Program-made: the position numbers and the translations under genes
Shown here: positions 15,277 to 48,292 of the stretch, one piece after another
Position numbering within the stretch: the first letter of the stretch is position 1
How the letters are laid out: every line of letters begins with the position of its first letter
The notes under the pieces: model-generated
What the model was told of the DNA's origin: nothing
The model's database searches: none
Seen by the model: the letters and a program-made list of their open reading frames with translations, nothing else
Assembly: GCF_055900595.2 (NCBI RefSeq)
Contig: NZ_CM148325.1
Direction: 5' to 3' (one strand)
DNA: 64,000 nucleotides

Positions 15277-16479
15277 ATGCAAAGTGTTGATGTAGCCATT
15301 GTTGGCGGCGGCATGGTGGGGCTGGCGGTTGCCTGCGGCTTGCAGGGCAGCGGCTTACGCGTTGCCGTACTGGAGCAGCGCGTACCGGAACCCCTGGCGG
15401 CGGATGCACCACCACAACTGCGCGTTTCGGCTATCAATGCCGCCAGCGAAAAATTACTCACCCGTCTTGGCGTCTGGCAGGACATTCTCTCTCGTAGGGC
15501 CAGTTGTTATCACGGTATGGAAGTGTGGGACAAAGACAGTTTTGGTCACATTTCGTTTGACGATCAAAGCATGGGCTATAGCCATCTTGGGCATATCGTT
15601 GAAAACTCAGTGATTCACTACGCGCTGTGGAACAAAGCGCAGCAGTCGTCAGATATCACTCTGTTGGCCCCCGCAGAATTACAGCAGGTCGCCTGGGGAG
15701 AAAATGAAACCTTCCTGACGCTGAAAGATGGCAGCATGTTAACGGCGCGTCTGGTAATTGGCGCAGACGGCGCTAATTCCTGGTTGCGCAACAAAGCCGA
15801 TATTCCGCTGACTTTCTGGGATTATCTGCATCACGCGCTGGTGGCGACCATTCGCACGGAAGAACCGCATGATGCGGTGGCGCGACAGGTTTTCCATGGC
15901 GAAGGCATTCTGGCCTTTTTGCCGCTTAGCGATCCGCATCTTTGCTCAATTGTCTGGTCACTGTCGCCAGAGGAAGCACAGCGGATGCAGCAGGCAGGCG
16001 AAGACGAATTTAACCGCGAGTTAAATATCGCTTTTGATAATCGCCTGGGCTTATGCAAGGTTGAGAGTGAACGCCTGGTGTTCCCGCTGACTGGGCGTTA
16101 TGCGCGCCAGTTTGCCGCGCACCGTCTGGCGCTGGTGGGCGACGCCGCGCATACCATTCACCCGTTGGCGGGGCAGGGGGTGAATCTCGGCTTTATGGAT
16201 GCTGCAGAGCTGATTGCTGAACTGAAACGGTTGCATCGTCAGGGTAAAGACATCGGGCAGTACATTTACCTGCGTCGCTATGAGCGTAGCCGCAAGCACA
16301 GTGCGGCGCTGATGCTGGCAGGTATGCAGGGATTCCGCGATCTGTTTTCCGGGGCTCATCCGGCGAAAAAACTGCTGCGTGATATTGGCCTGAAACTGGC
16401 CGACACGCTTCCTGGCGTTAAACCACAACTTATCCGCCAGGCAATGGGATTAAACGATTTGCCTGAATGGCTGCGTTAA
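15277..16479 (+). CDS. ubiI: 2-octaprenylphenol hydroxylase (VisC)
   Basis: 400-aa ORF MQSVDVAIVGGGMVGLAVA, paralogous to UbiH. Confidence 0.92.
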   Translation: MQSVDVAIVGGGMVGLAVACGLQGSGLRVAVLEQRVPEPLAADAPPQLRVSAINAASEKLLTRLGVWQDILSRRASCYHGMEVWDKDSFGHISFDDQSMGYSHLGHIVENSVIHYALWNKAQQSSDITLLAPAELQQVAWGENETFLTLKDGSMLTARLVIGADGANSWLRNKADIPLTFWDYLHHALVATIRTEEPHDAVARQVFHGEGILAFLPLSDPHLCSIVWSLSPEEAQRMQQAGEDEFNRELNIAFDNRLGLCKVESERLVFPLTGRYARQFAAHRLALVGDAAHTIHPLAGQGVNLGFMDAAELIAELKRLHRQGKDIGQYIYLRRYERSRKHSAALMLAGMQGFRDLFSGAHPAKKLLRDIGLKLADTLPGVKPQLIRQAMGLNDLPEWLR

Positions 16480-16926
16480 AAATTTCTCCTCTGTTGTTTA
16501 TTTGATACCCATCACACTTTCATCTCCCGGTTTTTTCGCCGGGAGATTTTCCTCATTTGAAATAAACTAATTTCACCTCCGTTTTCGCATTATATTTTCT
16601 AATGTCACGAATTTTTGATTTAGTGTTTTTTGACATTTTTTCAGTTCTTAATATTGCCTTATTCAAATTAAGTTTCTCATCACATCATCTTTGTATAGAA
16701 AATGGAATGTTTTTTGGTTTTTTATTCTGTTGTTATTCTGGCGTTTTTTAACCATAAGCTAATGTGATGATCAATTTTACCTTATGGTTAACAGTCTGTT
16801 TCGGTGGTAAGTTCAGGGAAAAGAGAACGATTGCGTTGGGGACCGGGAGTGGCTCCGATGCTGGGTTTCGTGGTGATAATTTCGCCATGGAAAAGTTGTC
16901 AGCCCCGCTTATTCAATGAGGACAAG
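16480..16926 (+). promoter_or_regulatory. gcvTHP control region (AT-rich, no ORF)
   Basis: 447-bp AT-rich spacer upstream of gcvT containing a TTGACA hexamer near 16631; by established knowledge this region carries GcvA/Lrp/PurR/CRP sites in E. coli; individual sites were not mapped here. Confidence 0.4.
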
Positions 16927-18021
16927 ATGGCACAACAGACTCCTTTGTACGAACAACACACGCTTTGCGGCGCTCGCATGGTGGATTTCCACGGCTGGAT
17001 GATGCCGCTGCATTACGGTTCGCAAATCGACGAACATCATGCGGTACGTACCGATGCCGGAATGTTTGATGTGTCACATATGACCATCGTCGATCTTCGC
17101 GGCAGTCGCACCCGGGAGTTTCTGCGTTATCTGCTGGCGAACGATGTGGCGAAGCTCACCAAAAGCGGCAAAGCCCTTTACTCGGGGATGTTGAATGCCT
17201 CTGGCGGTGTGATAGATGATCTCATCGTTTACTACTTTACTGAAGATTTCTTCCGCCTCGTTGTTAACTCCGCCACCCGCGAAAAAGACCTCTCCTGGAT
17301 TACCCAACACGCTGAACCCTTCGGTATCGAAATTACCGTTCGTGATGACCTTTCCATGATTGCCGTACAAGGGCCGAATGCGCAGGCAAAAGCTGCCACA
17401 CTGTTTAATGATGCTCAGCGTCAGGCGGTGGAAGGGATGAAACCCTTCTTTGGCGTGCAGGCGGGCGCTCTGTTTATTGCCACCACCGGTTATACCGGTG
17501 AAGTGGGCTACGAAATTGCGCTGCCCAATGAAAAAGCGGCGGATTTCTGGCGTGCGCTGGTGGAAGCGGGCGTTAAGCCCTGCGGTCTGGGCGCGCGTGA
17601 CACGCTGCGTCTGGAAGCGGGTATGAATCTTTATGGTCAGGAGATGGACGAAACCATTTCTCCTTTAGCAGCCAACATGGGCTGGACCATCGCGTGGGAA
17701 CCGGCTGATCGTGACTTTATCGGTCGTGAAGCTCTGGAAGCGCAGCGTGAACATGGCACAGAAAAACTGGTTGGTCTGGTGATGACCGAAAAAGGCGTGC
17801 TGCGTAATGAACTGCCGGTACGTTTTACCGATGCGCAGGGCAATCAGCATGAAGGCATTATCACCAGCGGTACTTTCTCCCCGACGTTGGGTTACAGCAT
17901 TGCGCTGGCACGCGTGCCGGAAGGTATTGGCGAAACGGCGATTGTGCAAATTCGCAACCGTGAAATGCCGGTAAAAGTGACGAAACCTGTTTTTGTGCGT
18001 AACGGCAAAGCCGTCGCGTGA
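16927..18021 (+). CDS. gcvT: glycine cleavage system T protein (aminomethyltransferase)
   Basis: ATG at 16927 within ORF 16804..18021; 364 aa beginning [24 protein letters not shown]. Confidence 0.9.
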
Positions 18022-18044
18022 TTTACTTTTTTGGAGATTAATTG

Positions 18045-18434
18045 ATGAGCAACGTACCAGCAGAACTGAAATACAGCAAAGAACACGAATGGCTGCGTAA
18101 AGAAGCCGACGGCACTTACACTGTTGGCATCACTGAGCACGCTCAGGAGCTGTTAGGCGATATGGTGTTTGTTGACCTGCCGGAAGTGGGCGCAACGGTA
18201 AGCGCGGGCGATGACTGCGCGGTTGCCGAATCGGTAAAAGCGGCGTCAGACATTTATGCGCCAGTAAGCGGTGAAATCGTGGCGGTAAACGACGCACTGA
18301 GCGATTCTCCGGAACTGGTGAACAGCGAACCGTATGCAGGCGGCTGGATCTTCAAAATCAAAGCCAGCGATGAAAGCGAACTGGAATCACTGCTGGATGC
18401 GACCGCATACGAAGCATTGTTAGAAGACGAGTAA
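18045..18434 (+). CDS. gcvH: glycine cleavage system H protein (lipoyl carrier)
   Basis: 129 aa beginning [16 protein letters not shown]. Confidence 0.9.
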
Positions 18435-18552
18435 CGGCTTTATTCCTCTTCTGCGGAAGAGGATTAGGGTGAGGAACATTTACGCCTCACCCTCACTCTC
18501 TTCGCAAGGAGAGAGGTTCACAATTCACTGCACGTTTCAGGAACCATCGCTC

Positions 18553-21426
18553 ATGACACAGACGTTAAGCCAGCTTGAAAACAGCGGCGCTTTTATTGAA
18601 CGCCATATCGGACCGGACGCCGCGCAACAGCAAGAAATGCTGAATGCCGTTGGCGCACAATCGTTAAACGCGCTGACCGGCCAGATTGTGCCGAAAGATA
18701 TTCAGCTTGCGATACCACCGCAGGTTGGCGCACCGGCGACCGAATACGCCGCGCTGGCGGAACTCAAGGCTATTGCCAGTCGCAATAAACGCTTCACGTC
18801 TTACATCGGCATGGGTTACACCGCCGTGCAGCTACCGCCGGTTATCCTGCGTAACATGCTGGAAAATCCGGGCTGGTATACCGCGTATACTCCGTATCAA
18901 CCTGAAGTCTCCCAGGGCCGCCTTGAAGCACTGCTCAACTTCCAGCAGGTAACGCTGGATTTGACCGGGCTGGATATGGCTTCGGCTTCTCTTCTTGACG
19001 AAGCCACTGCTGCTGCCGAAGCAATGGCGATGGCAAAACGCGTCAGTAAACTGAAAAATGCCAACCGCTTCTTCGTTGCTTCTGACGTGCATCCGCAAAC
19101 TTTAGATGTAGTACGTACACGCGCAGAAACCTTTGGTTTTGAAGTGATTGTCGATGATGCACAAAAAGTGCTCGATCACCAGGACGTCTTCGGCGTGCTG
19201 TTACAGCAGGTCGGCACTACCGGTGAAATTCACGACTACACTGCGCTTATCAGCGAACTGAAATCACGCAAAATTGTAGTCAGCGTCGCCGCCGATATTA
19301 TGGCGCTGGTGCTGTTAACTGCACCGGGTAAACAGGGCGCGGATATTGTCTTTGGTTCGGCGCAACGCTTTGGCGTACCGATGGGCTACGGTGGCCCACA
19401 TGCGGCATTCTTTGCAGCGAAAGATGAATACAAACGCTCAATGCCGGGCCGTATTATTGGCGTATCGAAAGATGCCGCGGGCAATACTGCGCTGCGCATG
19501 GCGATGCAGACTCGCGAGCAACATATTCGCCGTGAGAAAGCGAACTCCAACATTTGTACTTCCCAGGTACTGCTGGCTAACATCGCCAGCCTGTATGCCG
19601 TTTATCACGGTCCGGTTGGCCTGAAACGTATCGCTAACCGCATCCACCGTCTGACCGATATCCTGGCTGCAGGTCTGCAACAAAAAGGTCAGAAGCTGCG
19701 CCATGCGCACTATTTCGATACTTTGTGTGTGGAAGTGGCCGACAAAGCGGGCGTGCTGGCGCGTGCCGAAGCGGCTGAAATCAACCTGCGTAGCGATATT
19801 CTGAATGCGGTGGGGATCACCCTTGATGAAACCACCACGCGCGAAAACGTGATGCAGCTTTTCAGCGTACTGCTGGGCGATAATCACGGACTGGACATCG
19901 ACACGCTGGACAAAGACGTGGCTCACGACAGCCGTTCTATTCAGCCTGCAATGCTGCGCGATGACGAAATTCTCACCCATCCGGTGTTTAATCGCTACCA
20001 CAGCGAAACCGAAATGATGCGCTATATGCACTCGCTGGAGCGTAAAGATCTGGCGCTGAATCAGGCGATGATCCCGCTGGGTTCCTGCACCATGAAACTG
20101 AACGCCGCCGCCGAGATGATCCCAATCACCTGGCCGGAATTTGCCGAACTGCACCCGTTCTGCCCGCCGGAACAGGCCGAAGGTTATCAGCAGATGATCG
20201 CCCAACTGGCTGACTGGCTGGTGAAACTGACCGGTTACGACGCCGTCTGTATGCAGCCGAACTCTGGCGCTCAGGGCGAATACGCGGGGCTGCTGGCGAT
20301 TCGTCATTATCATGAAAGCCGCAACGAAGGGCATCGCGATATCTGCCTGATCCCGGCTTCTGCGCATGGCACTAACCCGGCTTCCGCGCATATGGCAGGA
20401 ATGCAGGTGGTGGTTGTGGCGTGTGATAAAAACGGCAACATCGATCTGACTGACCTGCGCGCGAAAGCGGAGCAGGCGGGCGATAATCTCTCCTGCATTA
20501 TGGTGACCTATCCTTCCACCCACGGCGTGTACGAAGAAACGATCCGTGAAGTGTGTGAAATCGTGCATAAGTTCGGCGGTCAGGTTTACCTTGATGGCGC
20601 GAACATGAACGCCCAGGTTGGCATCACTTCGCCGGGCTTTATTGGCGCGGACGTTTCGCACCTTAACCTGCATAAAACTTTCTGCATTCCGCACGGCGGT
20701 GGTGGTCCGGGTATGGGACCGATCGGCGTGAAAGCGCATTTGGCACCGTTTGTTCCGGGTCATAGCGTGGTGCAAATCGAAGGCATGTTAACCCGTCAGG
20801 GCGCGGTTTCTGCGGCACCGTTCGGTAGCGCTTCTATTCTGCCAATTAGCTGGATGTACATCCGCATGATGGGCGCAGAAGGGCTGAAAAAAGCAAGCCA
20901 GGTGGCAATCCTCAACGCCAACTATATTGCCAGCCGCCTGCAGGATGCTTTCCCGGTGCTGTATACCGGTCGCGACGGTCGCGTGGCGCATGAATGTATT
21001 CTTGATATTCGTCCGTTGAAAGAAGAAACCGGCATCAGCGAGCTGGATATTGCCAAGCGCCTGATCGACTATGGTTTCCACGCGCCGACTATGTCGTTCC
21101 CGGTGGCGGGGACGCTGATGGTTGAACCGACTGAATCTGAAAGCAAAGTGGAACTGGATCGCTTTATTGATGCGATGCTGTCTATCCGCGCAGAAATCGA
21201 CCAGGTGAAAGCCGGTGTTTGGCCGCTGGAAGATAACCCGCTGGTGAACGCGCCGCACATTCAGAGCGAACTGGTCGCCGAGTGGGCGCATCCGTACAGC
21301 CGTGAAGTTGCAGTATTCCCGGCAGGCGTGGCAGACAAATACTGGCCAACAGTGAAACGTCTGGATGATGTTTACGGCGACCGTAACCTGTTCTGCTCCT
21401 GCGTACCGATTAGCGAATACCAGTAA
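18553..21426 (+). CDS. gcvP: glycine dehydrogenase (decarboxylating), P protein
   Basis: ATG at 18553 preceded by aggaa; 957 aa beginning [21 protein letters not shown]; the 5' part of ORF 18469..21426 is a GTG-initiated extension through the structured spacer. Confidence 0.92.
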
Positions 21427-21492
21427 TTTACTGATTCGACTATCTTCTAAAGGCGCTTCGGCGCCTTTGACACTGATGTCAAACTCAACATT

Positions 21493-21591
21493 GCCTGATG
21501 CACCTCGTTTATCAGGCCTACATAGTCTGTGCAATGTATTGAATTTGCACGATCTTGTAGGCTGGATAAGGCGTTCACGCCGCATCCGGCA
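21493..21591. repeat. BIME: two inverted REP units
   Basis: gcctgatgcacctcgtttatcaggcctaca and tgtaggctggataaggcgttcacgccgcatccggca match the REP consensus in opposite orientations. Confidence 0.65.
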
Positions 21592-21621
21592 TAATAAAAG
21601 CACTTTGTCATCAATAATTTG

Positions 21622-21649
21622 AAAGGCGCTTCGGCGCCTTTATTTTTTT
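21622..21649 (+). terminator. rho-independent terminator immediately upstream of the ygfF ribosome-binding site
   Basis: aaaggcgcttcggcgccttt stem followed by attttttt; the same 20-nt palindrome occurs at 21449-21468 without a T-run. Confidence 0.5.
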
Positions 21650-21659
21650 AGGAAAACAA

Positions 21660-22403
21660 ATGACTATAGCACTTGTGACCGGTGGCAGTCGCGGCATCGG
21701 GCGGGCAACTGCATTACTGTTGGCGCAAGAAGGGTATACGGTGGCGGTTAATTATCAGCAAAACCTCCACGCGGCGCAGGAAGTGGTGAAGTTAATCACG
21801 CAAGCCGGTGGCAAGGCATTCGTGCTTCAGGCGGATATCAGCGACGAAAATCAGGTCATCGCAATGTTTACAGCAATCGATCAGCACGATGAACCGCTAG
21901 CCGCGCTGGTCAATAACGCCGGGATCTTGTTTACCCAGTGCACCGTAGAAAACCTTACCGCAGAGCGAATCAACCGGGTACTTTCCACCAATGTGACGGG
22001 ATATTTTCTCTGTTGCCGCGAGGCGGTAAAACGCATGGCGCTTAAAAATGGCGGTAATGGCGGTGCTATCGTCAACGTCTCGTCAGTGGCCTCACGGCTG
22101 GGATCGCCGGGAGAATACGTTGACTATGCGGCATCGAAAGGGGCGATTGATACGTTAACCACCGGACTATCGCTGGAAGTCGCCGCGCAGGGGATCCGCG
22201 TTAACGGCGTGCGGCCAGGGTTTATTTATACCGAAATGCACGCCAGCGGTGGCGAGCCTGGACGCGTTGATCGCGTTAAGTCGAACATCCCCATGCAGCG
22301 TGGCGGACAGGCGGAAGAGGTCGCGCAGGCCATCGTCTGGCTGTTAAGTGATAAAGCCTCTTATGTTACGGGAAGTTTTATCGATTTGGCGGGCGGGAAA
22401 TAA
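21660..22403 (+). CDS. ygfF: short-chain dehydrogenase/reductase (NADP-dependent)
   Basis: 247-aa ORF with the SDR motifs TGGSRGIG and YxxxK. Confidence 0.85.
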   Translation: MTIALVTGGSRGIGRATALLLAQEGYTVAVNYQQNLHAAQEVVKLITQAGGKAFVLQADISDENQVIAMFTAIDQHDEPLAALVNNAGILFTQCTVENLTAERINRVLSTNVTGYFLCCREAVKRMALKNGGNGGAIVNVSSVASRLGSPGEYVDYAASKGAIDTLTTGLSLEVAAQGIRVNGVRPGFIYTEMHASGGEPGRVDRVKSNIPMQRGGQAEEVAQAIVWLLSDKASYVTGSFIDLAGGK

Positions 22404-43266: not shown

Positions 43267-46137
43267 TTATATTTTTTCCAGCGCGGTGAGTATTTTCTCC
43301 GGTGTGAAATGCCATTCGCGTAACCAGATGCCGCAGGCATCGTGAATTGCGGTAGCAATCGCCGGAGCTGCGCCATTTACACCGATTTCTGAGATTGATT
43401 TCGCCCCGAATGGGCCGACTTTATCGTCGCTCGGCACCAGCACAGCGCGGAAATCACGCGGAATGTCACCAATTTTCGGTGCGCCGTAACTGCGTAAATC
43501 ACGCGTTAACGGGTGGCCTTCGGCGTCATAAATGATTTCTTCGCTCATACTGTGCCCGATAGCACGCAGGGTGGCACCGTAGATTTGTCCCAACGCTAAC
43601 TCTGGATTGACCGGTGTACCGCAGTCCAGCAAGGCATAGAATTTATCCAGGCGGATTTCACCCGTACGTGTGTTGACGGCAACTTCAGCAAAGTTTGCGC
43701 CATACGGGAAGGCGAAATCAGGCGTGATATAACTGGCAGTTCCCACCAGTGAACCAAAACCGGTGCCGGTTTCGCCTTTATGGGCAATATCACCGAAACT
43801 AACTTCGCCTTTCTTGCCGCGAACGACACCCGGCGTTGCCAGTTGAACATCCTCCAGGGGTTCCCCCAGCATTTGTGCACCGTGGAACAGGATTTTCTCT
43901 CGGAGATTTTCTGCCGCCATACGCGCCGCGTTGCCGGAGAAACATGTACCGGACGAGGCATATGCGCCTTTATCAAACAGCGCATGATCGGTATCACCGG
44001 AGATAACATGCACGTCCTGCGGTGGGCAGTGCAGCACTTCTGCTGCCAGTTTCGTCACAACCGTATCCAGACCAGTACCAATATCCGCACCGCCAGAATG
44101 AACGATAAAAGTACCGTCCGATTCCAGTTTGATCATGCAGTTAGCCTGATCAATATCCGGGATACCCGATTTCTGCATGATAATGGCGACGCCGCGACCG
44201 ATGTGCCAGTCACCATTTTGCGGTTTTGGTGAAGACCATTGGATCATCTCGCGACCCTGACGCAGGATCTCTTCCAGCGCGCAGCTGGCGGCGGAAGGAA
44301 CGGAGGTCGGCGCTTTACCTTCACCAATCGCACCGAGAATTTTCAGCTCTTGCCCTTCGTGTACCCGATTACGTTCGATAATTTCCAGTTGATCGATCTG
44401 TAACTGTTCAGCCAGTTCCGCTAATGCCATGGTGATAGCGAAGTTACCTTTCGGTGCGCCATAACCCTGATAAGCACCATTTGGGCAAATGTTGCTGTAG
44501 TAGGTGGTGACCTGGAAATCGACGTTATCGCACGGATATAACGGCAGCGACAGCGCCGGTCCGTTACACGGTACGGTGAGTGAGTGGTTGCCGTAAGGGC
44601 CTGTGTTGGCGCGGAAATCCATCTTCACAGCCGTCAGGCGACCATCTTTCTTTGCCCCCAGTTTGACGGTGACTTTCGCGACGTGACGAGAGGTGTTAGC
44701 AATAAACTGTTCTTCACGGGTGTAGCGGAACAGTACCGGACGCCCGGTCACGCAGGTTGCCCAGGCGCACACTTCTTCCAGCAGGATGTCCTGTTTAGAC
44801 CCAAAACCGCCGCCAACTCGCTCTTTAATGACATGAACTTTATGTTGTTTCATGCCCACGAGGCGCGCGACCTGGCGGCGTAAGTGCCATGGTACCTGGG
44901 TGGAGGCGTGGATAACCAGACGATCGCCGTCCATACGGGTAAAGCAGATATGAGTTTCAGTCGGGCATTGCTGCGCCTGAGTTGAGTTATAGGTTCGCTC
45001 AATGATCACATCGGCATCGGCAAAGCCTTTATCCATATCGCCAATATGACCATGAATACTGGCGGCGATATTTTTACGAGGGCGAGAACCGATAGGGAAG
45101 TTGATAATCATATGCTCGCCGCGCTGGGCTGCATGGCTGTTATCGTCTTCCAGAGTGTCTGGCGCACCCGCCACATACACCACCGGTTCATCGTGTACGA
45201 CAGGCGCATCTTCCGCCATTGCCTCGTCAATCGACATTACAGGCTTAAGCACTTCATATTCAACGTCGATGAGCTTCAGTGCTTCGAGCGCAATTTCTTC
45301 ACTTTCAGCGACTACCGCAGCAACGCGATCGCCGACGTGACGCATTTTCTTGCCGAACATACGGCGGTCAAGCGGTGACGGTTCCGGTGCGCTCTGACCA
45401 CCCGGGGTGTAGTAGATATCCGGGCAATTCAGATGAGTAATAACGTGAACGACGCCTGGTAAGGCTTCAGCTTTGCTGACATCCAGGTGAGTAATCAGTG
45501 CGTGAGCGTGAGGGCTACGTAACATTTTAATGACGCAGGCGTCAGCCGTTACGCGGTCTTCAACATAGCAGGGTTTCGCCTGCACCATTTTTGCGGCATC
45601 AGTTTTAGGATAATGCTTACCAATGACTTCAAGGTCATCGCGGAAAGTCGGAGCGATATCAATGGTGGCCTGCGGGTTATTTTTACGTGCAACCGCCAGT
45701 TCAATGACCTGATAGTATTGTTGCCAGCCTGCATCGCGACTGAACAAACCAGAAAGCGCGTCGTCGATCTCTTCGCGGGTCGGTGCGGCGATACGCTCGA
45801 GCAGATCAGTGATAATCAGAGCAGCAGCTGGATCGTTATAACCAGACTGCACCACGCCAACATCAACCATTGCCTGTTGAACCAGACTTAACTCGTTCCA
45901 TTTTCCCAGAGACTCTGCGGTACGAATATTAGCCTTCTCTATCTGTGCGGCAATAAGTAAGGACGCGTTGACGATATTACCGTTAAAGATAATTGCGTCA
46001 GAACCGGCAAAACCGAATCCATCATCGCTGTTGCGTACAGAGTGCATTCCCATGTTAAACAACAGCTTTTGCACGTTTTCACCAGGATTAACGGTTAGCT
46101 CCTGGGGCGTGCCATTTAATGTAAAGTGGATGATCAT
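43267..46137 (-). CDS. xdhD: molybdopterin-containing hydroxylase, large subunit (xanthine dehydrogenase family, with N-terminal 2Fe-2S domain)
   Basis: 956-aa ORF. Confidence 0.88.
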   Translation of the reverse strand: MIIHFTLNGTPQELTVNPGENVQKLLFNMGMHSVRNSDDGFGFAGSDAIIFNGNIVNASLLIAAQIEKANIRTAESLGKWNELSLVQQAMVDVGVVQSGYNDPAAALIITDLLERIAAPTREEIDDALSGLFSRDAGWQQYYQVIELAVARKNNPQATIDIAPTFRDDLEVIGKHYPKTDAAKMVQAKPCYVEDRVTADACVIKMLRSPHAHALITHLDVSKAEALPGVVHVITHLNCPDIYYTPGGQSAPEPSPLDRRMFGKKMRHVGDRVAAVVAESEEIALEALKLIDVEYEVLKPVMSIDEAMAEDAPVVHDEPVVYVAGAPDTLEDDNSHAAQRGEHMIINFPIGSRPRKNIAASIHGHIGDMDKGFADADVIIERTYNSTQAQQCPTETHICFTRMDGDRLVIHASTQVPWHLRRQVARLVGMKQHKVHVIKERVGGGFGSKQDILLEEVCAWATCVTGRPVLFRYTREEQFIANTSRHVAKVTVKLGAKKDGRLTAVKMDFRANTGPYGNHSLTVPCNGPALSLPLYPCDNVDFQVTTYYSNICPNGAYQGYGAPKGNFAITMALAELAEQLQIDQLEIIERNRVHEGQELKILGAIGEGKAPTSVPSAASCALEEILRQGREMIQWSSPKPQNGDWHIGRGVAIIMQKSGIPDIDQANCMIKLESDGTFIVHSGGADIGTGLDTVVTKLAAEVLHCPPQDVHVISGDTDHALFDKGAYASSGTCFSGNAARMAAENLREKILFHGAQMLGEPLEDVQLATPGVVRGKKGEVSFGDIAHKGETGTGFGSLVGTASYITPDFAFPYGANFAEVAVNTRTGEIRLDKFYALLDCGTPVNPELALGQIYGATLRAIGHSMSEEIIYDAEGHPLTRDLRSYGAPKIGDIPRDFRAVLVPSDDKVGPFGAKSISEIGVNGAAPAIATAIHDACGIWLREWHFTPEKILTALEKI

Positions 46138-46913
46138 ACGGCTTCCTCCCCAGCCTGTTGGCAGTCGGCATAAAGGTCGGCTACCAGAACTCCCGTGATA
46201 TAGCGTTTATAGGCCACGCTGCCCCGCAAATCTTCCTGCGGGAAAATGGCGTTGGCGACAGCCTGTTCAAGGGCATCGCCTTCCAAGTTTTGTTTTTCAA
46301 CATCGTGCAGACGCAGTGCTTTACTGGCCACGCCATCCAACGCAATTCGCATACCGTCGTGATCGGTTAACGCAACGGCTGCCGTTACTACCGTTAACCC
46401 AGCCTGAGAACGGCTAATTTTGCGAGTCGCACAGGTGCGATACGGATCTTTAATGATGATTTCGGTTAGCAGGCGATCGCATGGGCAGGCCAGGTACTCC
46501 TCAATTGACAGAGTTTCACCGTTGCCAAAAACCAGTTCGGCATCCAGTGCCAGCAGGACGGGAAGCAGCACCGACTCTTCCTGCCGGGCGGCGATTTCAC
46601 CACCAATGGTCGACTGATTACGAATATGGCGAGAGTAGACAAAGCCGAGAGCCTCACGCAGTGCTGCAGGAATAAACCGTGCATCACGCAGTGTTTGCAA
46701 GCGAGACATCGCGCCAATCCGCAATGCACCGTTATCCCAGTCAACCCAGTCCAGTTCCAGATCCTGTAAGGATATGGCAATCTTTTTATCGGTACGGGTT
46801 GGTGTGGCGTTGAGTTTACTGCCTCCGGCAAACCAGACAGCTTCATCCTGATAGCGGCGCTTCAGTTCCAGCGCCTGTTCGACAGAGTCGGGTCTGAAAA
46901 ATTGTTCAATCAT
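46134..46913 (-). CDS. ygfM: FAD-binding subunit of molybdo-hydroxylase (CO dehydrogenase flavoprotein-like)
   Basis: 259-aa ORF; start overlaps xdhD. Confidence 0.85.
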   Translation of the reverse strand: MIEQFFRPDSVEQALELKRRYQDEAVWFAGGSKLNATPTRTDKKIAISLQDLELDWVDWDNGALRIGAMSRLQTLRDARFIPAALREALGFVYSRHIRNQSTIGGEIAARQEESVLLPVLLALDAELVFGNGETLSIEEYLACPCDRLLTEIIIKDPYRTCATRKISRSQAGLTVVTAAVALTDHDGMRIALDGVASKALRLHDVEKQNLEGDALEQAVANAIFPQEDLRGSVAYKRYITGVLVADLYADCQQAGEEAV

Positions 46914-46963
46914 CTTCTTTCCTTATTTAACCCTCTTCCTTTAAGGAAGAGGGTATCTGTCAT

Positions 46964-48292
46964 TTATGCCAGCGCATCCATCCGACGCCACATACTGGCG
47001 GCGGCTTTTTGGGCTTGCGCATAAATGGAATCGCAATCGAAGTTAAACTGACGGTCTTCATAGACCATAACGCCATTGACCATCACGCTATGAACGCTGC
47101 CTGAACCCATGCCGAAAGCGATATGTCCAGCGATATTGTCTGCCAGCAGTGGCGTCGGTGAGTTGTAATCGCAAATGGTTAAATCGGCTTTATAACCGGC
47201 TTCAAGAAGGCCAAATTTCGCGCCAAAGTTGCGGCTCATCAGTTCGTTGCCGTTAGCCAGAGCTTTGGCAAAGCTGTCAGGCCACAGCGGACCACCCGCA
47301 TCGCGATGTTTAAAGAAGGCAAATTTCATCTCTTCAAACATGTCCGAACCAATTCCGTCCGTTCCCAACGCCAGATTGCGGATGTCGCAAAGATGATGGT
47401 TGTAGCCGACATGGTTGTTCATGTTTGAACGGGCGTTATGCACCAGGAATGCATCACGCTGATTGAGCAACGCGATGTCGTCTTTAGACAGATAAAGCCC
47501 ATGAGCGACCAGCGTTTTGCTGTCGATGAGATCGAATTGCGCTAATCGTGCCAGCAGATCTTTGCCGTACCAGTGATGACTATGGGAAACATCGTAAAGG
47601 TCTTCCGCAGCGTGAATATGTAAACCACGGCCTGTGGCTTTCACGGCCTCACGCAGCATTTCCAGACCGGCATCCGGCACAGTAAACGGCGCGTGAGCAC
47701 CAATATGAGCCTCTACCAGATACGGTTCAGTTGCCGCTTTCTTCGCATCATCAATCTGACGGGCGAAGCGGATATTTTCCTCTACTCCTTCCTGTAGTTC
47801 TTTAATGCCGTTGTTACGGTCAGTGGTTTCAAAACAGGTCATCGCACGCAGGCCAACTTTTAAAAATGCGTTGCGCAATGTGGAGAGCGACCCGCCGATA
47901 TACGCCGGAGAGGCATGGTGATCGATAACAGATGTACATCCGCTCTTAATCGCTTCCAGGGAACAAATCAGTCCGCTGTAATAGAGAGACTCTTCATCAA
48001 GGGCGCGATCGAGTCGCCACCAGAGATTTTTCAGCGTTGAGATGAAATCCGGGCAGGGGGCGATGTTTGCCATAATTCCACGGGAAAGCCCCGAGTAAAA
48101 ATGGTTGTGCGAGCAGACAATTCCCGGCATCACAATCCGACCATGCATCTCTTTGTAGCTGGCATCGGGGTAGCGTTGCGTCAGAGCATCGCCTATAGCG
48201 ACAATCACATCATTTTCGATGGCGATATCAACGCCTTCCTGCACTTTCGCCGGGTGTAACTGCACTGCGGTGACATTCTTCAGAATCAACAT
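46964..48292 (-). CDS. ssnA: amidohydrolase-superfamily protein SsnA (chlorohydrolase/deaminase-like)
   Basis: 442-aa ORF with an HxH metal-binding motif. Confidence 0.88.
   Translation of the reverse strand: MLILKNVTAVQLHPAKVQEGVDIAIENDVIVAIGDALTQRYPDASYKEMHGRIVMPGIVCSHNHFYSGLSRGIMANIAPCPDFISTLKNLWWRLDRALDEESLYYSGLICSLEAIKSGCTSVIDHHASPAYIGGSLSTLRNAFLKVGLRAMTCFETTDRNNGIKELQEGVEENIRFARQIDDAKKAATEPYLVEAHIGAHAPFTVPDAGLEMLREAVKATGRGLHIHAAEDLYDVSHSHHWYGKDLLARLAQFDLIDSKTLVAHGLYLSKDDIALLNQRDAFLVHNARSNMNNHVGYNHHLCDIRNLALGTDGIGSDMFEEMKFAFFKHRDAGGPLWPDSFAKALANGNELMSRNFGAKFGLLEAGYKADLTICDYNSPTPLLADNIAGHIAFGMGSGSVHSVMVNGVMVYEDRQFNFDCDSIYAQAQKAAASMWRRMDALA

Follow-up and report, generated by a model that had tools for sequence, protein, structure and literature searches.

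The gcvH and gcvP genes of the glycine cleavage operon gcvTHP of Escherichia coli are separated by a highly structured spacer of 118 nt, and the question that this locus raises is what such a spacer does between two genes of one operon and where its sequence came from. In the window (i.e., the whole 64-kb stretch of DNA that was analysed), this region is that of E. coli and is 100% identical to the corresponding sequence of strain 2013C-4282. The spacer (18435-18552) extends from the gcvH stop codon TAA (18432-18434) to the gcvP start codon ATG at 18553, and the proteins encoded on its two sides, GcvH and GcvP, both match NCBIfam equivalogs (Table 1). BLAST searches found the spacer in 5425 of 5426 complete E. 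coli genomes, with one copy per genome, and the possibility that it is itself a dispersed repeat was rejected on the basis of this single copy.

A sequence-only reading of the window had proposed three stem-loops between gcvH and gcvP, and the MFE fold of the spacer RNA reproduces exactly these three hairpins (h1, h2 and h3; Table 1), with a free energy of -44.7 kcal/mol and a z of -4.72. None of the 200 dinucleotide shuffles that served as the control for the whole-spacer fold was as stable. When the hairpins were folded singly, each also had a z of -4.7 or below, and again 0 of 200 shuffles reached the stability of any of them. The loop of h3 is of the GNRA type in both E. coli alleles, being GCAA in one and GUAA in the other.

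Table 1. Features of the gcvH-gcvP region (positions are those of the window; energies are for hairpins folded singly).
Feature	Position	Strand	Basis or value
gcvH CDS, 129 aa + stop; upstream stabilised cistron	18045..18434	+	ORF list; NCBIfam TIGR00527 gcvH, E = 8.8e-61
h1: 8 bp, UCCUCUUC-UGCG-GAAGAGGA, UNCG-type loop	18444..18463	+	-13.1 kcal/mol, z = -5.5
Left degenerate BoxC/TMECO-like unit, TCCTCTTCT-gc-GGAAGAGGA-TTA-GGGTGAGGA	18444..18475	+	Consensus comparison; TMECO HMM
h2: 9 bp, AGGGUGAGG-N10-CCUCACCCU, variable 10-nt loop	18466..18493	+	-15.6 kcal/mol
Right degenerate BoxC-like unit, inverted; reverse complement CCTCTCTCC-TTGC-GAAGAGAG-TGA-GGGTGAGG	18485..18516	-	Inverted repeat I1; HMMs
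h3: 8 bp including one U-G, CUCUCUUC-GCAA-GGAGAGAG, GNRA loop	18496..18515	+	-12.2 kcal/mol, z = -4.7
Equivalent of the published term-seq 3' end	18497	+	S6-table sequence ending ...CCTCACCCTCACT, placed on the window by sequence
gcvP translation-initiation leader ATTCACTGCACGTTTCAGGAACCATCGCTC	18523..18552	+	Spacer comparison
gcvP CDS, 957 aa + stop; downstream less stable cistron	18553..21426	+	NCBIfam TIGR00461 gcvP, E = 0

The 3' arm of h3 carries a Shine-Dalgarno-like run, AAGGAGAGAGG. As had been noticed from the letters of the sequence, no properly spaced start codon follows it: ATG, GTG and TTG are all absent from the spacer at Shine-Dalgarno distance 3' of the run, and the sole start candidate there is an ATT at 18523 in the gcvP frame, which is an improbable start. 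A hidden ORF in the spacer was rejected on this ground, and the GTG-started ORF of the ORF list (18469..21426) is merely an in-frame upstream extension of gcvP. The ribosome-binding site of gcvP is a separate one, AGGAA at 18539-18543, as the same reading had stated. Its suggestion that the spacer couples translation of the two genes is unsupported, given a spacer of this length, a Shine-Dalgarno-like run that is enclosed in h3 and a gcvP gene with a ribosome-binding site of its own. In the genera of Enterobacteriaceae, the 30 nt that immediately precede the gcvP ATG hardly vary, whatever unrelated repeat lies upstream of them. The conservation of this leader exceeds what a Shine-Dalgarno sequence alone needs, and folding of the region 18494-18560 revealed no convincing structure (z = -1.4).

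The other role that the sequence-only reading had suggested, that of an RNase-protective element setting the gcvH:gcvP ratio, agrees well with published mRNA data. In their genome-wide study, Dar and Sorek list gene pairs of E. coli that decay differentially, and for one of these, gcvH-gcvP, they give a gcvH/gcvP half-life ratio of 2.21 +/- 0.02 and a steady-state mRNA ratio of 5.03 +/- 1.33, as well as a half-life ratio of 1.42 from the Moffitt 2016 data (Dar and Sorek, 2018, PLoS Genet, PMC5927463, S3 table). Under the heading 'E. coli 3' protective structures', the same authors give a term-seq 3' end at position 3042456 of BW25113, directly 3' of ...GGGTGAGGAAAATTTATGCCTCACCCTCACT of h2, together with the upstream sequence CTTTATTCCTCTTCTGCGGGAGAGGATCAGGGTGAGGAAAATTTATGCCTCACCCTCACT and a fold that is h2, with -15.7 kcal/mol (PMC5927463, S6 table). 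Placed on the window, this 3' end falls within the 5' arm of h3, 4 nt beyond the final pair of h2, and the placement agrees with the coordinates of the BW25113 record when a 4-nt length offset is allowed for. The mapped barrier is h2 only, among the three hairpins. Salmonella keeps the differential abundance of gcvH and gcvP (2.64 +/- 0.19), and its 3' end follows a REP hairpin in the gcvH-gcvP spacer (PMC5927463, S5 table). The E. coli spacer therefore combines a stable intercistronic hairpin, which was computed here, with a 3' end and a longer upstream half-life, which were published, and these are the features of a 3' protective structure. Decay alone is not the full explanation, as the half-life ratio (2.2, or 1.4 in the Moffitt data) falls short of the mRNA ratio (5.0). 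The published evidence on gcvH-gcvP decay is genome-wide and correlative, and we found no mutational study of this spacer in the literature. The gcvTH-protective function of the spacer hairpin is already published, and the case is a tidy example of a known mechanism.

What the sequence-only reading did not recognise is that the spacer is a relic of a BoxC-family repeat. BoxC, also called PIT or TMECO, has been treated by Bergler (1992), Bachellier (1990s), Hoyne and Maher (2000) and Holder et al. (2015; PMC4666352). It is a dispersed family without demonstrated function, with the consensus CCCTCNCCC-N3-6-GGGNGAGGG-N3-GGGNGAGGG; of its 23 listed copies in K-12, 10 form five inverted dimers (5 of 18 loci), and the gcvH-gcvP spacer is absent from this list (Holder et al., 2015, PMC4666352). 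The h2 loop is the centre of an imperfect palindrome that makes up the core of the spacer, with an inverted repeat, I1, whose 29-nt arms (18446-18474 and 18485-18513) are 76% complementary. The three-block architecture of BoxC, with its short loops and in the arrangement of an inverted dimer, is found at 18444-18516, where h1 is made from the pyrimidine block and the first purine block of the left unit and h2 from the third blocks of both inverted units. The 21-nt purine part of the left unit has 3 mismatches to the BoxC consensus, and all six departures of this unit from the consensus are GC-to-AT transitions.

By strict consensus, membership in the BoxC family was rejected, as pattern and HMM searches gave weak matches only. 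An HMM of the 23 K-12 TMECO copies matched the left unit with E = 0.24 and the right unit, on the minus strand at 18516-18486, with E = 4.1; neither value is significant, and the two units rank first and fourth, respectively, among the matches in the 64-kb window. The same HMM matched BoxC-type gcvH-gcvP spacers from outside Escherichia at 1e-7 to 1e-10 on both strands, and these spacers are therefore genuine BoxC members. A second HMM, which was built only from non-Escherichia BoxC dimer cores (of Enterobacter, Pseudocitrobacter, Siccibacter and Buttiauxella) after removal of the conserved flanks, matched the window at 18445-18515 with E = 3.6e-8 and on the reverse strand with E = 2.1e-7, and it found nothing comparable elsewhere in the 64 kb. 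Homology to the family is thus established via the orthologous dimers. A covariance model of the spacers, R1, also detected the canonical K-12 BoxC dimer 3' of gcvP (TMECO #10/#11) with 51 bits, which supports the spacer set; for the E. coli sequence it is no independent test, as R1 included E. coli rows. No Rfam family matched the spacer even at E <= 10 in a search of 16000-22000, and assignment of the spacer to REP/BIME or to an Rfam family was rejected, REP-related matches being found only 3' of gcvP, at 21514-21601. We conclude from these comparisons that the core of the E. coli spacer is a decayed BoxC inverted dimer, i.e., a homologue of the family that no longer conforms to its consensus.

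The gcvH-gcvP junctions of other bacteria were taken from 80 species-representative genomes and 120 metagenome contigs, a sample without E. albertii, E. fergusonii and Shigella, and the spacers were then extracted. The two genes are adjacent in 79 species, and in 74 of these the spacer is 55 nt or longer; the MFE z of these 74 spacers has a median of -2.45 and is below -2 in 50 of them. Canonical or near-canonical BoxC inverted dimers occupy the spacer in Enterobacter cloacae, E. asburiae, Pseudocitrobacter, Buttiauxella, Siccibacter and several other Enterobacteriaceae; these BoxC-dimer spacers outside E. coli are 113-131 nt in length, about that of E. coli, and their flanks are mostly similar. 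The spacer of Pluralibacter contains a BoxC monomer, while those of Cedecea, Phytobacter and others contain one CCCTCTCCC/GGGAGAGGG hairpin. REP/BIME sequences are found in Citrobacter, Lelliottia, some Enterobacter and metagenome contigs that we took as Salmonella, the latter carrying no organism label and encoding a GcvH that is 97.7% identical. ERIC, sometimes together with REP, is found in Citrobacter koseri, Kluyvera and contigs taken as Klebsiella. The spacers of Photorhabdus, Providencia, Serratia, Yersinia, Dickeya, Pectobacterium, Shewanella and Idiomarina contain a GC hairpin that is mostly followed by a T-run, and those of Erwinia and Rosenbergiella are 8-23 nt in length with no hairpin. 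Across Enterobacterales, the requirement for a stable hairpin 3' of gcvH is conserved, whereas its source changes between BoxC, REP, ERIC and terminator-like hairpins. The BoxC ancestry and the turnover of modules at this site, which we did not find in the literature, appear to be a modest addition to a known case.

The sequence-only reading had proposed that conservation and covariation of the stems in Enterobacteriaceae be examined. The stems do covary, in an alignment of 28 distinct BoxC-type spacers, but the spacer sequence is not conserved across Enterobacteriaceae, as other genera have unrelated hairpin-forming repeats in its place. In this alignment, 91.3% of cells pair in the three-hairpin structure and 10 pairs show changes on both sides, counts that ignore phylogeny and in which perfect canonical stems may come from the repeat family itself, by recent insertion or gene conversion, rather than from local selection. 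The observed percentage paired, number of double changes and covariation score were reached by 0 of 500 shuffles, and in controls with slid partners pairing falls to 57-68%. Some rows of the MAFFT and covariance-model alignments are still one position out of register, which makes the pair counts for helix 2 conservative. The MFE structure of canonical BoxC dimers is one long nested hairpin. This single nested hairpin was rejected as the structure under covariation, as its covariation is not above that of its shuffles, and therefore the arms covary locally.

The window allele itself shows how pairing was kept. Relative to canonical BoxC, C-G pairs have become U-A pairs through double changes at 18444/18463, 18450/18457 and 18497/18514, and a U-G wobble is found at 18502/18509. 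For the pair 18450/18457, the intermediate U-G is present in the common K-12 allele. Similar compensatory events occur in Siccibacter and in the spacer groups of L198/L161, L183/L100, L099 and L011, and for some of the events outside E. coli a G-U intermediate is kept in a sister sequence. The E. coli spacer RNA folds 7-11 kcal/mol better in the sense than in the antisense direction, whereas canonical dimers are symmetric, and the unique helices contain 25 G-U pairs versus 6 A-C mismatches (binomial p ~ 9e-4). Among the E. coli alleles compared (those of the window and K-12 and five from metagenomes), variation is seen at 1 of 50 stem positions, where the change is structure-neutral, versus 5 of 22 loop or linker positions (Fisher p = 0.009). 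This contrast may come partly from hypermutable loops, since the flanks, with changes at 0 of 46 sites, vary no more than the stems do. In their thermodynamic stability the hairpins are exceptional; their pairing on the sense strand has been kept up by compensatory changes and wobbles, and they share their ancestry with BoxC dimers. The polymorphism of E. coli sits in the hairpin loops and the linker (18475-18484 and 18505; alleles in L082-L200) and consists of C/T changes and one 1-nt indel, with stems (the single neutral change apart) and flanks fixed; the hairpin loops may be local mutational hotspots.

Taking origin and function together, we consider it likely that the spacer core is a decayed BoxC inverted pair that has been retained because its hairpins act as a 3' protective structure for the gcvTHP mRNA. 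Differential operon decay of the malE-malF type is the best-supported reading of how such a structure would work. The polycistronic transcript would be cut 3' of the hairpins, probably in the AU-rich single-stranded stretch 18517-18538 or within gcvP, and 3'-to-5' exonucleases, the presumed nucleases, would then strip the gcvP part and stall a few nt after h2. A longer-lived gcvT-gcvH message would be left over, by which one promoter could provide mRNA for the H protein (and the T protein) at about five-fold the level of that for the P protein. Under this mechanism, h1 and h3 may contribute and protein stoichiometry would presumably be affected, and hairpin-dependent transcription attenuation may add some of the effect.

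A different account of the same mRNA ratio, which we regard as unlikely, is that the hairpins terminate transcription within the operon in a leaky, non-canonical way or make the polymerase pause, possibly with the aid of NusA or Rho. Fewer polymerases would then transcribe gcvP, and the 3' end after h2 would be a termination product. This account would accommodate the abundance ratio in E. coli (5.0) being larger than the half-life ratio (2.2), and an internal termination site 3' of gcvH with 71 +/- 22% termination has been reported in Dickeya, in stated agreement with E. coli SMRT-Cappable-seq and SEnd-seq data (PMC9239193). The GC hairpins and T-runs in the spacers of Photorhabdus, Providencia, Serratia, Yersinia and Shewanella, all outside Enterobacteriaceae, point in the same direction. 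In E. coli, however, the tails 3' of h1, h2 and h3 are UUAGGG, CACUCU and GUUCAC, so that no U-tract follows any of the hairpins, and a promoter and terminator scan of 18435-18552 found neither an intrinsic terminator nor a promoter; as a Rho-independent terminator, which has a hairpin with an immediate U-tract, the spacer was rejected. Moreover, BoxC/PIT had no terminator activity in earlier reporter work (summarised in PMC4666352), the half-life difference between gcvH and gcvP was measured directly (PMC5927463) and we did not find a gcv entry in the SMRT-Cappable-seq supplements.

It is also conceivable, although very unlikely in our view, that a palindromic repeat, selfish or spreading passively, left the spacer behind as a neutral relic, in which the hairpins are a by-product of BoxC palindromy and the effect on the mRNA is incidental. 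BoxC is, after all, a dispersed family without demonstrated function, the presence of REP, ERIC or BoxC according to genus makes the gcvH-gcvP site look like a landing pad for repeats, and Erwinia and Rosenbergiella cope with their short, hairpin-free spacers. Yet pairing has survived the decay of the repeat via the three C-G to U-A double changes and wobbles that are tolerated on the sense strand only, a pairing-preserving pattern for which a simple simulation gave p ~ 0.004. The element is also present in nearly all of the complete E. coli genomes (5425/5426), its stem pairing is intact in all alleles examined and stabilisation of the upstream cistron has been measured (PMC5927463).

Action at the level of DNA rather than RNA, in which an intrastrand triplex or cruciform would affect replication, recombination or local genome stability, is scarcely credible here: although oligonucleotides of canonical TMECO form triplexes in vitro, TMECO loci are hypervariable between strains (PMC4666352) and one E. 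coli strain has an apparently palindrome-mediated inverted duplication within this spacer, in vivo DMS footprinting saw no triplex at canonical copies (PMC4666352), the G-to-A changes in E. coli would break about 3 of 9 purine-motif triplets on reading of the sequence (about 6 of 9 remaining compatible, with G18467, G18473 and A18475 facing A or a non-canonical partner), and the sense/antisense asymmetry and the UNCG and GNRA tetraloops point to RNA.

Beyond retention of the E. coli hairpins for mRNA protection, a broader proposal may be advanced tentatively, namely that BoxC repeats, like REP, are a general source of mRNA 3'-protective hairpins, of which the gcvH-gcvP copy is a domesticated one, with REP, ERIC and BoxC as interchangeable modules that replace one another at a single intercistronic site in the course of evolution. 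The BoxC family, which has been without an assigned function for about 30 years, would then have one, and the gcvH-gcvP copy would have stayed under selection at the RNA level well after its departure from the consensus.

Further repeats and rearranged alleles were observed around this locus. In K-12, the gcvP-ygfF intergenic region contains a canonical BoxC inverted dimer, TMECO #10 and #11 (L001:2490-2600; NC_000913.3 ~3,045,989-3,046,087). Because these two copies occupy that region, gcvP of K-12 has a decayed BoxC dimer on its 5' side and an intact one on its 3' side. The gcvP-ygfF site of the window strain (21427-21660) is REP-like instead, with Rfam ES036 at 21514-21556 and a sub-threshold naRNA4 match at 21560-21601, and its REP-like sequence is flanked by two identical AAAGGCGCTTCGGCGCCTTT hairpins at 21449-21468 and 21622-21641. 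In E. coli VTB96775v (NZ_CP178634.1; L202:146-315), the gcvH-gcvP spacer is 170 nt in length, compared with 118 nt in the window, and through an inverted duplication its order is h1, h2, inverted h3, h2 and h3. This looks like a palindrome-mediated rearrangement, which fits the reported instability of BoxC loci. Elsewhere in the window, ssnA (46964-48292) and a gene for a ygfM-like FAD subunit (46134-46913), both on the minus strand, are separated by a 50-nt spacer in which a perfect BoxC-like hairpin, ACCCTCTTCC-TTTAA-GGAAGAGGGT, is found at 46930-46954. Both BoxC profiles rank this hairpin second among their matches in the window, and it is a candidate for a further intercistronic stabiliser.

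The gcvH-gcvP case joins three subjects, the orphan BoxC family, hairpins as barriers to exonucleases and the need of glycine cleavage for more H than P protein, and it opens no new question. For engineering of gcvTHP, e.g., in reductive-glycine pathways, it matters that the spacer probably sets the mRNA ratio, and in annotation the spacer can be recorded as a degenerate BoxC dimer.

Compared with known systems, the E. coli spacer shares with that of Dickeya dadantii and of other gammaproteobacteria outside Enterobacteriaceae a GC-rich hairpin directly 3' of gcvH, at the same position of the operon, and in D. dadantii gcvTH is likewise in excess over gcvP (PMC9239193). The Dickeya-type hairpins act as terminators and have a T-run on their 3' side, whereas the E. 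coli hairpins are without a U-tract. With BoxC repeats, the spacer core shares the pyrimidine block, short loop and purine block, the TTA/TCA linker, GGGTGAGG, the intergenic location and the arrangement as an inverted dimer, and it is positionally orthologous to the canonical dimers of Enterobacter and others, with homology at the level of profiles. It differs from them in failing the strict consensus, in being confined to a single locus outside the 23 K-12 copies and in having two type-A-like linkers where an A+B pair is expected; moreover, the family has no assigned function, while the gcvH-gcvP copy coincides with a measured protective 3' end. Intercistronic REP/BIME stabilisers, those of malE-malF and hisJ-hisQ, were reportedly described by Newbury and Higgins in 1987. 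The gcvH-gcvP spacer differs from such stabilisers in belonging to another repeat family, with neither REP sequence nor Rfam match, and in having three tandem hairpins, compared with one or two in the classic cases. In common with them, it places a stable hairpin 3' of the stabilised cistron, with an RNA 3' end a few nt beyond the hairpin, a longer upstream half-life and more abundant upstream mRNA, and malE-malF is found in the same published table as gcvH-gcvP (PMC5927463).
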